Shown here: piece by piece, positions 50,361-54,253 of the stretch
Layout of the letters: each line of letters begins with the position of its first letter
Position numbering within the stretch: position 1 is the stretch's first letter
IMG/VR virus record: IMGVR_UViG_2939142107_000001
Location: 1 to 64,000 of that record
DNA: 64,000 bases
DNA from: a virus
Lineage: Duplodnaviria > Heunggongvirae > Uroviricota > Caudoviricetes
Direction: 5' to 3' (one strand)
Position numbers and translations under genes: made by a program
Notes under the pieces: model-generated
What the model saw: the letters and a program-made list of their open reading frames with translations, nothing else
What the model was told of the DNA's origin: nothing
Database searches by the model: none

Positions 50361-50605
50361 AAAAGCGATACTACACAGTAAAGCATGGGACGCTACGAGC
50401 ATTACAAGAGTTTGCTGATAAGCATAACGTTGAGGTGCGCAGGGAAGGGGGAAGTAAAGCTCTGCGCATGTACCGCCCGGACGGGAAATGGCGTACGGTC
50501 GTCGATTTCAAAACTAACAGCGTTCCCCAGGGCGTCCGCGACCGGGCATTCGAAGAATGGGAGCAAATCATCATAGATAATGCATTGCTCCTGAATGCTG
50601 ATTAA
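50357..50605 (+). CDS. lxc: Lxc (Bof), corepressor modulating C1
   Basis: 82 aa; size and position match P1 lxc. Confidence 0.7.
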   Translation: MKKRYYTVKHGTLRALQEFADKHNVEVRREGGSKALRMYRPDGKWRTVVDFKTNSVPQGVRDRAFEEWEQIIIDNALLLNAD

Positions 50606-50613
50606 GTTTGTCT

Positions 50614-50640
50614 AGCCCGGTTAATACCGGGCTGGTTTAG
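50614..50640. terminator. Bidirectional terminator between the convergent lxc gene and the accessory cassette
   Basis: AGCCCGG-TTAATA-CCGGGCT flanked by T/A runs. Confidence 0.75.
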
Positions 50641-50663
50641 ACATCTTAAGTGGGTGTTAATTT

Positions 50664-51173
50664 TTAATTATGGTTAATCATATCTAACAGTATTTTTAGC
50701 TTCCTGCATGTGTTATCAATATCTTTACATAATATGACATCAAGGATGTTTGGTAGTCCTAATACCATATGAGAAATGAAACCCTCGCCAACTTGTAGAT
50801 TATGGGTAGTCTCATCTGGATTCACGTATTCAATGGTTTTAGTTTTATTTATCCCATAATCTTTATAACAGATGATTACAGGAATGTTCTTCTGTTCAGC
50901 AATCTGCAACTCTATTCCTAGCCCTGTTGATGGAAAACTACATTCTGCAATTATTACATCAGATTTCTCAACCATATCTCTGTCCCAAATGTAACAAAGT
51001 CTAGATTTGTTACTTTCAGGGCGCTTTGATAATTCTGGGTCACTATTTATCAAAGCATATTTTACGTTGTTATTTTGAGATAGACCTTTTGCAAGGCTGT
51101 GAATCCAATTACTGTACTCATGGAAAATTTCCCTTGGAACATGAGTTAAAGCGCATGCGATATATATATTCAT
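50664..51173 (-). CDS. Nucleoside 2-deoxyribosyltransferase-like (NDT/Rcl/TIR-like fold) protein, 169 aa
   Basis: NIYIACAL at the N-terminus and WDRDMVEKSDVIIAECSFPSTGLGIELQIAEQKNIPVI match the NDT family pattern (D...aD.vvA...dsGT.fE.GyA...KPvi). E88 occupies the catalytic Glu position. TAATG overlap with the upstream gene. Very AT-rich. Confidence 0.75.
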   Translation of the reverse strand: MNIYIACALTHVPREIFHEYSNWIHSLAKGLSQNNNVKYALINSDPELSKRPESNKSRLCYIWDRDMVEKSDVIIAECSFPSTGLGIELQIAEQKNIPVIICYKDYGINKTKTIEYVNPDETTHNLQVGEGFISHMVLGLPNILDVILCKDIDNTCRKLKILLDMINHN

Positions 51174-52213
51174 TAAGAAGCAGACCTTACGTTTGGGATA
51201 AGAAATTGGTGTCCAGTAATTTCAGATGAAATTGCATCTATAAACTGTGACGGAGATTGTTGAATAAATTCAGCAATAATCCAGTTTTCTTTTTCATTTA
51301 GTAACTGTCTTAGCTTAAGTGGGTCATACCGACATAGCTCACTTAATCGATGCATAGCTGCTAGGGTTATAACCAATGGCGATATTGAAACAGAAGTATG
51401 CTCAGATTGATTGTTTTTACGTTTGAGATACCAAAGAGTCTCTGCGCCATTGATATAGTAAAGATCTCTTCTTATTTTTTGATGAAATTCAGTTAATTGC
51501 GGCATGTTGGACGATTGATTTTCATTAAAATCAAGTAATGATTCTACTGATTTTATTTTGTACTTTTCTCTTTCAAACAATTCGAACGCTGGCGGTAGAA
51601 TGTCGAAAACTGTGTCGAACCGAAAATCCTTGGATAAAATCGCAGTGAAAAACAGGCTATTGTCTGACTCATTCAAAACGAACTCAGCATCGATCAGTGG
51701 AATAAATATATCATCAGTTACATCATAAGTAAGGCAATATGTACGATGAATATATGGCAATCCAGAAAAAAGGTTTTTTATATTGTACACCCCCTCATGA
51801 GAGGTGCCGTCAATATATTTTGAAAAAGACGGAAGTATACCCTCATTTTTTATTTTTACTTTTATATCAGATAAGTTATCAATTTGGGCTGTATTTTCAC
51901 CCCTAGCAACACCATGATGCTGTTTGAAGTTTATATTGCGAGATGAAAGTAACGCCTTTACTGCATTCATGAATGAATAATAGTGCAAAAGTGGGGCTGA
52001 TTGGTTGGGTAAACCATTGGCCGCCTGATTAAATACTTTTGCTTGCTCCCAATAAAAAAGAGCCTCATCTTTTTCGTTTCGCTTTAACCAGAGTTCGACA
52101 AAATCCCAATGACTGTATGTAAGTACATTCCTTGCGGTTAGGTCAGGGTTTAATAATGCTTTATGAGGCTTCATGACCTTGTTCCTAATTTTCAGCGGCT
52201 TAATATTCATCAT
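51173..52213 (-). CDS. YaaC-like family protein, 346 aa
   Basis: ALFYWEQAKVFNQAANGLPNQSAPLLHYYSFMNAVKALLSSRNINFKQHHGV...IKVKIKNEGILPSF resembles the conserved YaaC N-terminal core. GGAGGAT RBS lies 8 nt upstream. Confidence 0.65.
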   Translation of the reverse strand: MMNIKPLKIRNKVMKPHKALLNPDLTARNVLTYSHWDFVELWLKRNEKDEALFYWEQAKVFNQAANGLPNQSAPLLHYYSFMNAVKALLSSRNINFKQHHGVARGENTAQIDNLSDIKVKIKNEGILPSFSKYIDGTSHEGVYNIKNLFSGLPYIHRTYCLTYDVTDDIFIPLIDAEFVLNESDNSLFFTAILSKDFRFDTVFDILPPAFELFEREKYKIKSVESLLDFNENQSSNMPQLTEFHQKIRRDLYYINGAETLWYLKRKNNQSEHTSVSISPLVITLAAMHRLSELCRYDPLKLRQLLNEKENWIIAEFIQQSPSQFIDAISSEITGHQFLIPNVRSAS

Positions 52214-52242
52214 TGTAATAATCCTCCACCCAAAGTTACTAG

Positions 52243-52271
52243 ATTGTAAAATATATATTTTTGTTCCACAA
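52243..52271 (-). promoter_or_regulatory. Candidate sigma70 promoter of the cassette, with an overlapping palindrome
   Basis: On the minus strand, TTGTGG is followed by a 17-nt spacer and TACAAT. The palindrome TTGTTGTGGAACAA (52261-52274) overlaps the -35. Confidence 0.35.
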
Positions 52272-52303
52272 CAAAAATCTCTATTGGCTACTGACGTAAT
52301 TAA

Positions 52304-52945
52304 TTATAAATAGTTTTCTTTGCCGGTAAGTAAGCCTTGAGGAACTCGCTTGTCGGCTAGACATTGGGTTCCGCGAATTATGTTAATCAGAGGGCTTAGT
52401 AACGATGGTTCCTGGCGGGCCTCAACTTCTCCAGCCATTGCCCTGATGTAGTCGGCGCTTGCAACGTTGTTATATTCCGTTGCGAAGCAGCATAACAACG
52501 ACAGAACGTGCTCTGTCGTTATTTCGCTCCAGTTGATGTTGAAAAATTCATCGCCTTTTTTGTCGTGTTCGGAATCGAAGATGCTTTGGTGGAGGATGTA
52601 TTTGCCGGATTCTTTGCGCGGTAACTTGATCGCTTTCTGGCGTTCCAGCTCCTTGTAAATCTGCATTGCTTCAATTAGTACCGGCCTGCCGTTCATGAAG
52701 GGATCGCGCAACCTTACACGCTGGCCAACTCGACCCGTAATAAAGCTGTTTTCCTCTTCCACCAGCACGATAAAACCCTTTTCCTCTTTTTCTTGCAATT
52801 CGCGCAGCAGCTGGAGTTCCATATCGCGGCGGCGTTCAGGGTAGCTGGTCCGCTCAGCCATTATCAGCTCATTGTTGATCCATGCGGCAGTCATTGACGC
52901 CGGTTTGCCGACGCTCATCGAAACAACGCATATTTTCTTATCCAT
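52304..52945 (-). CDS. mat: Mat (maturation control) candidate
   Basis: ORF between ref and the res/mod position. Start at MDKKICVVSM (52945) is preferred; the ORF is open to 53092. Confidence 0.55.
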   Translation of the reverse strand: MDKKICVVSMSVGKPASMTAAWINNELIMAERTSYPERRRDMELQLLRELQEKEEKGFIVLVEEENSFITGRVGQRVRLRDPFMNGRPVLIEAMQIYKELERQKAIKLPRKESGKYILHQSIFDSEHDKKGDEFFNINWSEITTEHVLSLLCCFATEYNNVASADYIRAMAGEVEARQEPSLLSPLINIIRGTQCLADKRVPQGLLTGKENYL

Positions 52946-53134
52946 AGCGCCCCTTATAAAAAAGAAAAGCCACCAGCGGCGGCTTAGCAATACAACTGAA
53001 GGTAGCGCCCGGTACTCAGACTGTGCCGTCCATGGAATATTTGAAAAGGGATCCATCCGTACCGGGCATGTGATGATTCTGACTGAAGTCACTTGTCAGT
53101 TGTCAATTATTTCAGATTAAAAATAATATATTTA

Positions 53135-53695
53135 TTAGTGCATGATGTTTGCCATCTCATAAGCGTCAGCCAGCAACTCCATCTCTGACTTGTTCAGCAA
53201 GGTGAATTCTTTCTTGCCTCCAACCACACCATCGGCATGAACAGGGACCAGCCAGGGGTATTTTTCTCTTACTTCAGCCGGTGCTGCATGCTGGTGGTGC
53301 CATCTACAAAGTGGCAATTGCTTTTTGTGACAACCAGGCGCGGTACGACCGGAGATATGGTGCAGAGACACCTCTTCAGATATTACTCCATGCATATAGC
53401 AGGCAATGCAGGGGAGAGCACCAAGAGCATTGGCTATGCGCCGCTCCTCCGCCGTCGGTGTTCGTCCCTTCAAGCCACGAGATTTTATTTTTACCGCGCT
53501 TTTCCGCGTTTTGCTGGCTGGTGGGCGCTCTTTCTGTTTAGCGATACGGCGGTCGATAGTATTCCGCATTTTCTGATATTGAGATTCTCGCCAGGCCGGA
53601 TCAGCCAACTTCTCCCGTTGCCGAGCGATCGCTCGTTCTCTGGCTGCCTTCTGCCACTTACGGTGCTGTTCAATTTTTTGTTCGATTGTTTTCAT
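53135..53695 (-). CDS. ref: Ref, RecA-dependent HNH endonuclease (recombination enhancement function)
   Basis: 186 aa from MKTIEQKIEQHRKWQKAARE; HNH-type motif LHHISGRT...CRWHH. Recognised as P1 Ref. Confidence 0.9.
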   Translation of the reverse strand: MKTIEQKIEQHRKWQKAARERAIARQREKLADPAWRESQYQKMRNTIDRRIAKQKERPPASKTRKSAVKIKSRGLKGRTPTAEERRIANALGALPCIACYMHGVISEEVSLHHISGRTAPGCHKKQLPLCRWHHQHAAPAEVREKYPWLVPVHADGVVGGKKEFTLLNKSEMELLADAYEMANIMH

Positions 53696-53793
53696 ATGGC
53701 AAAAAAAAGGCGGCCTGATGGCCGCCAATGATGTCAAGGAGTTAAGTAATGGCAACGTCTTCGTAGTTGACAAAAACTGCGGCTCAATTATAG

Positions 53794-53810
53794 CAATCAA
53801 TTAGAGCAAT
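53794..53810 (-). promoter_or_regulatory. C1 operator upstream of ref, with a second partial copy at ~53781-53797
   Basis: CAATCAATTAGAGCAAT matches the consensus at 14/17. Confidence 0.6.
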
Positions 53811-53941
53811 GGTAGATATTTTGTTTATCGCGAATCACATTTTTTCACTTCAGTACCTGTGTGCTATACTCCTTCTTGATTGATTGGATGCGGAATACAA
53901 ACCCGCTCTTTTGTGCAGCCTGGCTCCTTGCCAGGCTTTTT

Positions 53942-54253
53942 TTATTTCATCATGGAAGCTGTTAATGCTTTGGACCTTGCTGAACTGATTGAGAGGGCTT
54001 TGTCAACGTGCCCCAAAAATTCGCCAAACTCAGACATCACTTTAGCAAAACCGCGCCGTGCTTCTTCCTCGGTGGCATTCATCACGAAATGTTCAGCACT
54101 ACGCATACTTCTGACAGGGAACGCAACGGATATTGAGTCAATATCAGGCATTCTATCGCTCAGCTTTACAGTGACAATGACGGCTGGCGACTGAATATTA
54201 GTGCTCACTGACAGCACTACATATTTTCCGTCGATGTTGAAATTCTTTCTCAT
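53942..54253 (-). CDS. cra: Cra (cre-associated) candidate
   Basis: 103-aa ORF directly downstream of cre. An operator-like CAAAGAATTAGAGCAAT lies at 54270-54286. Confidence 0.55.
   Translation of the reverse strand: MRKNFNIDGKYVVLSVSTNIQSPAVIVTVKLSDRMPDIDSISVAFPVRSMRSAEHFVMNATEEEARRGFAKVMSEFGEFLGHVDKALSISSARSKALTASMMK

Follow-up and report, generated by a model that had tools for sequence, protein, structure and literature searches.

A two-gene cassette pairing a YaaC-family HEPN protein with a nucleoside deoxyribosyltransferase-like protein in P1-like phage-plasmids, a candidate defense module

We analyzed a 64,000-nucleotide stretch of a viral record (IMG/VR IMGVR_UViG_2939142107_000001, positions 1 to 64,000; the whole stretch is referred to below as the window), and within it a two-gene cassette located between the genes lxc and mat. 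The window corresponds, with identical coordinates, to Escherichia coli plasmid pCARB35_01 (NZ_CP031654.1, IncY, 89.6 kb), which is a P1-like phage-plasmid. The lxc open reading frame (ORF) ends at 50605 on the plus strand and the mat stop codon lies at 52306-52304 on the minus strand. The cassette between them holds the following features.

50606..52303: low-GC cargo cassette, from the lxc stop to the mat stop; P1-like plasmids may have different cargo in its place
51173..52213, minus strand: ORF of gene 1, YaaC family, 346 aa, WP_077902034.1
50664..51173, minus strand: ORF of gene 2, similar to nucleoside 2-deoxyribosyltransferases (NDT) and DNPH1, 169 aa, WP_024245513.1
51171..51175, minus strand: TAATG stop/start overlap, one base being common to the gene 1 TAA and the gene 2 ATG

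No ORFs other than these two were found in the cassette, in which the GC content is 0.34-0.38, compared with 0.48-0.53 in the flanks. A preliminary description of this stretch, made from the sequence alone, had proposed an AT-rich two-gene operon on the mat strand between mat and lxc, and both ORFs, the difference in base composition and the TAATG overlap were present as described. Judged from its sequence, the overlap is a signal that couples the translation of gene 1 and gene 2.

Gene 2 was modeled with AlphaFold2 (AF2; pLDDT 96.1), and in the model it has the flavodoxin-like fold of NDT and DNPH1 proteins. The top 50 Foldseek matches were dominated by DNPH1, NDTs and BcmB (E-values to 6e-6, TM-scores to 0.78 by target), the best being human DNPH1, an Enterococcus NDT-family protein, the CMP N-glycosidase BcmB and true NDTs. 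A profile built from 38 homologs, when compared with PDB sequences, matched Rcl/DNPH1 chains (E 8e-5), with PSTGLGIEL of gene 2 placed opposite PSLGVGYEL of Rcl and W-D64 opposite the Rcl catalytic Asp. In this alignment D64, S82 and E88 correspond to Rcl D69, S87 and E93. Among the same homologs (47-70% identity), no substitution occurs at D64, G84, G86 or E88, and Y4 and S82 are conserved in at least 90%. The candidate catalytic set consists of Y4, D64, S82 and E88, with the motif P81-S-T-G-L-G-I-E88. We take the equivalent Tyr, Asp and Glu of Rcl/DNPH1 to be catalytic, with Glu as the nucleophile, and the equivalent Ser to bind the 5'-phosphate. By this comparison, the gene 2 site looks like that of a nucleotide, rather than a nucleoside or DNA, N-glycosidase. 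The NDT/Rcl-like fold and the position of E88 as the catalytic Glu, both proposed in the preliminary description, are therefore borne out by the model, the structural matches and the profile alignment. Of the activities that it had offered, nucleotide depletion is favored, since a DNPH1/Rcl-type site that includes a putative 5'-phosphate-binding Ser fits it better than base excision from DNA.

Precomputed PF05014 matches were present in some gene 2 homologs, and comparison of gene 1 and gene 2 with NCBIfam and PHROGs yielded nothing meaningful. A hidden Markov model (HMM) search of 1.84 billion representatives also detected longer NDT-like relatives (P0294-P0333, 250-565 aa), in which the domain is full-length and contains the PSTGTGQELERA motif. 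After it come long, charged extensions of low-complexity or coiled-coil-like character. These extensions had no Pfam match, and there were no YaaC fusions among these proteins.

The upstream protein, gene 1, matched PF14175 (YaaC) with 157.6 bits and an E-value of 6.3e-46 (residues 34-332, model positions 18-307 of 307), well above the gathering score of 27 bits, and PF14175 was also present in 120 of the 120 listed homologs. Pfam matches other than YaaC were not found in gene 1, and it has no recognized DNA-binding domain. Thus, the earlier YaaC assignment held. That description had called YaaC a family without known function; its fold is not of unknown type. Gene 1 belongs to the HEPN superfamily as a member of AF0298/AbiV type, with a four-helix up-down bundle formed by helices at ~35-91 and ~279-333, between which an alpha/beta domain is inserted at ~102-275. 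The invariant positions comprise H100-G101, H156-R157, R248, H288, S291, R295-Y296, N310-W311 and E315, as well as a C-terminal tail, E331..P340-N341-x-R343. Invariant R295, together with invariant H100 just past helix 2, forms a candidate site that, by sequence, resembles the AF0298/AbiV-type alternative; such a His/Arg arrangement was described for AF0298-type HEPN-T and for the abortive-infection protein AbiV by Anantharaman et al. (PMC3710099).

When the HEPN helices of gene 1 were spliced together, they gave a weak match to PF05168 (HEPN) at this segment (E 0.05-0.09), and some homologs had been named UPF0332 by JGI. The full YaaC profile had no match among PDB sequences. The profile of the spliced helices had a sole PDB match, to an oligoribonuclease (E 0.41), which we took as chance. 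Foldseek of the YaaC model against PDB gave nothing significant, the best hit being the 2H phosphoesterase Usb1 (E 0.35, probability 0.13), and no recognizable relative of the insert domain was found. A P-x-x-H-R-T-Y-C motif in the insert is nearly invariant, with the H156-R157-T158 codons at window positions 51740-51748. Although these three residues resemble the HxT motif of 2H phosphoesterases, we did not read them as a 2H site.

The YaaC-NDT pair is a conserved, mobile and obligate unit. A genome scan with one genome per species yielded 53 loci with the NDT-like gene, from Proteobacteria, Bacteroidota, Planctomycetota, Cyanobacteria, Acidobacteriota, Nitrospirota, Armatimonadota, Myxococcota and Campylobacterota. 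At 49 of these 53 loci, a YaaC gene on the same strand ends 0-30 nt before the NDT start, and at none of the 53 is the NDT gene alone, which fits a toxic enzyme in need of a partner. The same co-occurrence was seen from the YaaC side: the NDT gene is directly downstream in 75 of the best 80 metagenome YaaC loci, and the remaining five comprise one NDT gene after a frameshifted YaaC, one contig that is too short and three loci without NDT, so that 76 of 79 informative loci have the NDT gene downstream. In IMG/VR, 7 of 13 loci carry the pair. The genes that flank it differ from locus to locus.

Divergent YaaC proteins (35-41% identity) also occur without an NDT gene (L077-L082, L168, L172 and L175), several of them on viral contigs. 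They keep the H100-G, IHR(S/T)Y, MHRLSE..RY and NWLLSEF motifs and lose the C-terminal P-N-(V/I)-R tail. This tail is confined to NDT-paired YaaC proteins and, from its distribution among the sequences, may be specific to the NDT partnership. The genes downstream of the solo relatives vary. Decayed copies of the module were also observed: YaaC is frameshifted in L004 (746-1662) and L149 (86-1695), and in L047 (133-2303) what is left of YaaC is separated from the NDT gene by a ~1-kb ORF that is common to other loci, possibly a transposase.

Three loci from distant genomes, namely a Desulfarculales metagenome-assembled genome (MAG), a Bacteroidetes MAG and Piscirickettsia salmonis, have no YaaC gene upstream of NDT and carry in its place a gene for a dCTP-deaminase-like (DCD-like) protein.

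L009:9009-10450; L022:8946-10438; L053:9046-10441: DCD-like gene and NDT gene

The DCD-like partner is ~320-350 aa long (PF22769, E ~1e-26), its gene overlaps the NDT start, and its hydrophobic C-terminus is apparently transmembrane, as read from the sequence. The RSSxxRxG and PLE motifs known from dCTP deaminases and dUTPases are retained in it, and neither this protein nor its NDT partner had a match among PADLOC models. What stays constant in the module is thus the NDT gene. In a neighbor-joining tree of 51 NDT proteins, constructed without support values, the DCD-paired NDTs are not monophyletic: one is found amid alphaproteobacterial YaaC-paired proteins, one amid Bacteroidota, and one on a deep branch. 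It is therefore probable that the upstream gene was replaced on more than one occasion. The presence of a DCD-like partner would tie the NDT-like enzyme to deoxypyrimidine nucleotide chemistry, and DCD-like plus NDT looks like a second uncharacterized two-gene module.

The setting of the pair in P1-like plasmids provided further information. Approximately 695 PLSDB plasmids carry the mat and lxc flanks, and 84 of them have the cassette at >=95% identity; among complete E. coli genomes, 108 of 5,426 (~2%) carry it, and it is nearly always plasmid-borne. In ten sampled sister plasmids, the lxc-mat interval was occupied by type III restriction-modification (R-M) genes (three), DUF2971 (three), SIR2, PIN, an EAL fragment and the insertion sequence IS5. 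Single-gene cargos were as follows.

L060:5080-6384: SIR2; L063:5437-6387: PIN; L064:3775-4785: DUF2971

When compared with PADLOC, the SIR2 protein corresponded to PDC-S25/ThsA/LmuA, the PIN protein to PDC-S34 and the DUF2971 protein to PDC-S31. Because R-M genes and PADLOC-matching genes alternate there, the lxc-mat interval is a defense-cargo hotspot. It had been proposed that the cassette occupies the res-mod slot, and the finding of type III R-M at the same junction in three sister plasmids agrees with this; the accompanying statement that res and mod converge on lxc was incorrect, as in P1-like plasmids with type III R-M both genes share the strand of lxc and are convergent with mat. Where an element has other cargo, its similarity to the mat of the window starts at query position 61-138 (window 52304-52441). 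Thus, the last ~20-46 mat codons are exchanged together with the cargo, and the junction is inside the gene.

Other settings of the pair were also found. In a P2-like prophage it is located between gpS and gpV, an interval that we take to be the Z/fun hotspot, in a lambdoid prophage it lies in an accessory region, and in an E. coli chromosomal island it occurs with an integrase, BrxR and Dpd genes. Away from prophages, it is found beside a PycTM gene (Pycsar) and helicase-nucleases in Chryseobacterium, and beside AAA_15 and UvrD (Gabija-like) genes in Bradyrhizobium. When the two nearest genes on each side were pooled over the 53 loci, matches to mad3, PDC-M19B, type I R-M, NsnB, AriA, HEC-02A and GajA were observed, and the same scan also matched integrases, insertion sequences and TrbI. 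Taken together, the slot, the prophage hotspots and the defense neighbors strongly favor the defense or conflict role that had been proposed for the cassette. A megablast search of the cassette against 50,697 deposited phage genomes gave no match.

With regard to previous knowledge, full-text searches gave no relevant main-text mention of YaaC with defense, phage or HEPN, of PF14175, or of the two WP accessions, and a domain-centric discovery paper does not mention YaaC, NDT or HEPN (PMC13069673). DefensePredictor (Science 2026, PMC13092281), however, lists the cluster of WP_077902034.1 in its Table S10 as a 'Putative novel defense gene' with a mean log-odds of 11.0. There, the protein resembles known defense only by a weak HHblits match to the Retron_IX HEPN (coverage 0.16, probability 52), and it is absent from the screened and validated sets in Tables S6 and S8 (PMC13092281). 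The novelty claimed for the pair stood in part: we found neither a PADLOC match nor a describing paper, but the gene 1 cluster had already been listed. The module is a new combination of known defense building blocks, and it has been flagged computationally.

Several of these building blocks deserve comparison. DNPH1/Rcl and BcmB/MilB have, like gene 2, the NDT fold, the P-S-x-G-x-G-x-E motif and equivalent Asp, Ser and Glu residues. Their identity to gene 2 is, however, 14-18%, and gene 2 has an obligate partner and occurs on mobile elements. Compared with these enzymes, a beta-hairpin and a C-terminal helix (~115-167) are additional conserved elements of gene 2, where the conserved residues are N118-P119-D120, H124, L126-Q127, G129 and G131. 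The effector of retron Ec86 is NDT-like and was reported to deplete adenine derivatives. Retrons Ec86 (Eco1) and Sen2 thus offer an NDT-like toxic effector restrained by a partner, but the retron effector is bilobed and larger, whereas the cassette ORFs include no reverse transcriptase. The cassette was not regarded as a retron variant, as a reverse transcriptase was absent from it and from the annotated neighbors and no PADLOC retron match was found; msr/msd non-coding RNA was not searched for.

In type VIII Thoeris, ThsI is an NDT-superfamily CMP hydrolase that was proposed to manipulate the nucleotide pool. It is, like gene 2, an NDT-superfamily protein, but it has TPR and is activated by TIR-made cADPR, whereas the partner in the cassette has a HEPN fold. 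Pfam found no TIR or TPR in either cassette protein, and a variant of this system was rejected. Fusions of an Abi N-terminal domain with NDT (AbiJ-NTD1-NDT) were noted in 2013. Relative to AbiV/AF0298 HEPN-T, YaaC differs by the ~175-aa alpha/beta insert that splits its HEPN helices and by its pairing with an NDT-like enzyme, as opposed to being solo or with MNT. A HEPN-MNT toxin-antitoxin system was likewise rejected, since no MNT is adjacent and the only partner is the NDT-fold protein. Finally, defensive dCTP deaminases and dGTPases share with the module the proposed outcome, a phage starved of deoxynucleotides, and in three genomes the NDT gene has a partner of dCTP-deaminase fold. The predicted chemistry of gene 2, in contrast, is glycosidic cleavage of monophosphates, and the defensive dCTP deaminases described so far belong to the zinc cytidine deaminases, with a fold other than that of the DCD-like partner.

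The cassette also contains possible expression signals.

52227-52221, minus strand: Shine-Dalgarno sequence GGAGGAT, 8 nt before the gene 1 ATG (52213)
52243..52271, minus strand: candidate promoter by sequence match, TTGTGG (52271-52266), 17-nt spacer, TACAAT (52248-52243)
50614..50633: GC-rich hairpin AGCCCGGT-ATTA-ACCGGGCT, in the intergenic stretch on which gene 2 and lxc converge

The strong ribosome-binding site GGAGGAT that had been described was confirmed in the sequence. The promoter sequence exists as well, but it is weak, with a -35 element that matches the consensus at 3 of 6 positions, and it was not among the calls of a consensus scan, which gave fewer promoter-like sites than in shuffled sequence. 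As for the bidirectional terminator that had been placed at the gene 2-lxc junction, the hairpin is stable (-21.2 kcal/mol, z -5.15). However, neither strand has a U-tract and the scan made no terminator call, so that its terminator role is only plausible; it is possibly a non-canonical bidirectional terminator.

Two observations concern the neighborhood of mat. The mat ORF as called by program extends to a GTG at 53092 (262 aa), whereas RefSeq mat is 52304-52945 (213 aa). The mat-cre region also varies in P1-like plasmids and forms a second cargo site, which in the window corresponds to positions 53135-54253 (ref to cra). Variants beside or instead of ref were seen at L060:7877-10068, L065:6111-9726 and L066:6827-9672, and the cargo of the mat-cre region was one of three sets: an MBL-fold hydrolase, an HTH protein and an ester cyclase; GNAT and GrpB; or IS26 accompanied by aac(3)-IVa and aph(4)-Ia.

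We suggest that the P1-like prophage-plasmid carries this cassette in its defense-cargo slot to exclude other phages. That the cassette is an anti-phage defense or conflict module of the abortive-infection type appears very probable. It is a more tentative matter, somewhat short of an even chance, that the NDT-like enzyme acts as effector under a sensor or regulator, YaaC, and we assign a probability of roughly 0.5 to the explanation as a whole. What we infer of the enzymatic activities, the substrate, the physical interaction, the trigger and the identity of the sensor is as follows. Gene 1 would be made in fixed proportion to gene 2 through translational coupling, and it would perceive infection and control the glycosidase, holding it in check and activating it. 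Gene 2 would then cleave the base-sugar bond of a 5'-phosphorylated (deoxy)nucleotide, and this glycosidic cleavage would destroy DNA precursors required by the phage. Candidate substrates are deoxynucleoside monophosphates (dNMPs), possibly modified as in phages, e.g., 5-hydroxymethyl pyrimidine nucleotides; alternatively, the substrate might be an NAD-type nucleotide, as was reported for other NDT-like effectors. It is possible that gene 1 also contributes an AbiV-like RNase activity via H100 and R295. We prefer the model with NDT as effector because all characterized defense NDT-like domains are effectors, and because the NDT gene is never alone and the gene order and coupling resemble antitoxin-toxin pairs.

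It should be noted, however, that several points weigh against this explanation. HEPN is a classic RNase effector fold, and HEPN domains are usually effectors, not sensors. The solo YaaC relatives keep the core polar residues, which suggests that YaaC has an activity of its own, and when partners are swapped while one gene stays constant, it is more typically the effector that changes, which would make NDT the sensor or signal maker. Thus, while the defense module proposed in the preliminary description is retained, the roles that it gave to the two proteins, effector for NDT and sensor for YaaC, are only tentative, YaaC being a HEPN protein. The canonical HEPN Rx4-6H motif is itself absent from gene 1, where helix 3 ends in H288-R-L-S-E-L-C-R295-Y-D-P, with no His at 4-6 residues past the Arg. 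The score of gene 2 against PF05014 was 22.1 bits (E 1.8e-4), below the gathering score of 28.8, and the expected profile match was thus sub-threshold, although the fold and the Rcl/DNPH1 profile evidence rescue the NDT assignment. Neither gene 1 nor gene 2 matched the PADLOC-DB v2.0.0 HMMs at E<=1. In addition, the neighbor scan gives pooled counts, and the evidence from defense context is qualitative.

The exchange of partners is also what would be expected under the opposite polarity, in which the NDT-like enzyme senses infection and makes, by cleavage or base exchange, a modified nucleotide that activates a swappable effector. This effector would be either the YaaC HEPN RNase, gated by its insert, or the DCD-like membrane protein, and NDT would be analogous to the TIR protein ThsB of Thoeris. 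NDT enzymes naturally catalyze base exchange and their fold is related to TIR, proteins with HEPN domains or transmembrane helices are typical effectors, the combination of HEPN with a ligand-binding domain is a known logic (e.g., CBS-HEPN in DS-11), and the solo YaaC relatives retain the putative catalytic residues. We nevertheless consider this polarity unlikely: no NDT-type signal generator is known, the characterized NDT-like domains in defense all being effectors, a dNMP-hydrolase-type site with a putative phosphate-binding Ser fits simple hydrolysis, and the tree that suggests repeated exchange has no support values. That the NDT-like enzyme represents a new kind of immune signal generator, an analogue of TIR and cyclase sensors with interchangeable effectors, seems less likely again. 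A further reading is a purely metabolic coupling, in which the upstream protein, either the DCD-like enzyme or YaaC as a HEPN that binds or hydrolyzes nucleotides, would convert a (d)NTP to the (d)NMP, and the NDT-like enzyme would then split this irreversibly into base and sugar phosphate. Nucleotide binding is a property of the sacsin HEPN and of the KNTase C-terminal domain, products of DCD-like enzymes with RSSxxRxG and PLE motifs would feed a dNMP hydrolase, and the Ser that in DNPH1-type sites binds phosphate is conserved in gene 2. Sequence divergence among the NDT proteins does not follow partner type, as expected when no interface has co-evolved, and HEPN-T relatives occur with nucleotidyltransferases (PMC3710099). 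Such a two-step pathway is improbable in our view, given that there is no evidence of NTP hydrolysis by any HEPN domain and that it leaves unexplained both the silence in uninfected cells and the transmembrane helices of the DCD-like partner, while the restriction of the PN(V/I)R tail to NDT-paired YaaC hints at physical contact.

Two further possibilities take the cassette away from host protection. It could be a toxin-antitoxin addiction module with NDT as toxin and YaaC as antitoxin, which stabilizes mobile elements and has no direct anti-phage role. Two coupled genes with the larger upstream product expected in excess, an NDT gene that is never alone, the occurrence of the pair on plasmids, prophages and islands, and occasional copies decayed by frameshift or insertion sequence (L004, L047 and L149) all agree with this. 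On the other hand, the upstream protein has 346 aa, enzyme-like conservation and no recognized DNA-binding domain, the slots otherwise hold R-M or defense genes rather than stability genes, and DefensePredictor scores gene 1 as defensive. We give addiction alone only a small chance, and toxin-antitoxin and abortive-infection roles are not mutually exclusive. A benefit for the phage itself, such as nucleotide salvage, sanitizing, or counter-defense by degradation of immune nucleotide signals, is very improbable. DNPH1-type enzymes sanitize hmdUMP in eukaryotes, according to the names of PDB entries, and the element does invest in counter-defense, with a darB-type ORF of 2255 aa located upstream. 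However, the pair is also chromosomal and beside defense genes outside prophages, as in Bradyrhizobium and Chryseobacterium, the slot holds host-protective R-M in sister plasmids, and the phage genomes had no megablast match, with only the 7 paired loci in IMG/VR.

Overall, the YaaC-NDT cassette is a real, widespread and uncharacterized defense candidate with some mechanistic novelty. The lxc-mat interval, as a defense-cargo hotspot, can be mined in the same manner as the P2 and P4 hotspots. If the explanation favored here is true, the cassette would be a compact two-gene defense system present in at least nine bacterial phyla, whose E. coli carriers are mostly P1-like phage-plasmids, which also spread resistance genes. 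It would show whether DNPH1-like glycosidic cleavage of nucleotides is antiviral and would link a human nucleotide-sanitizing enzyme to bacterial immunity. Should the signal-generator alternative be true instead, it would reveal a new nucleotide second-messenger pathway in bacterial immunity, together with the first function for YaaC. For the YaaC family (PF14175), which is currently without known function, the favored explanation, if true, would provide a fold and a biological role.

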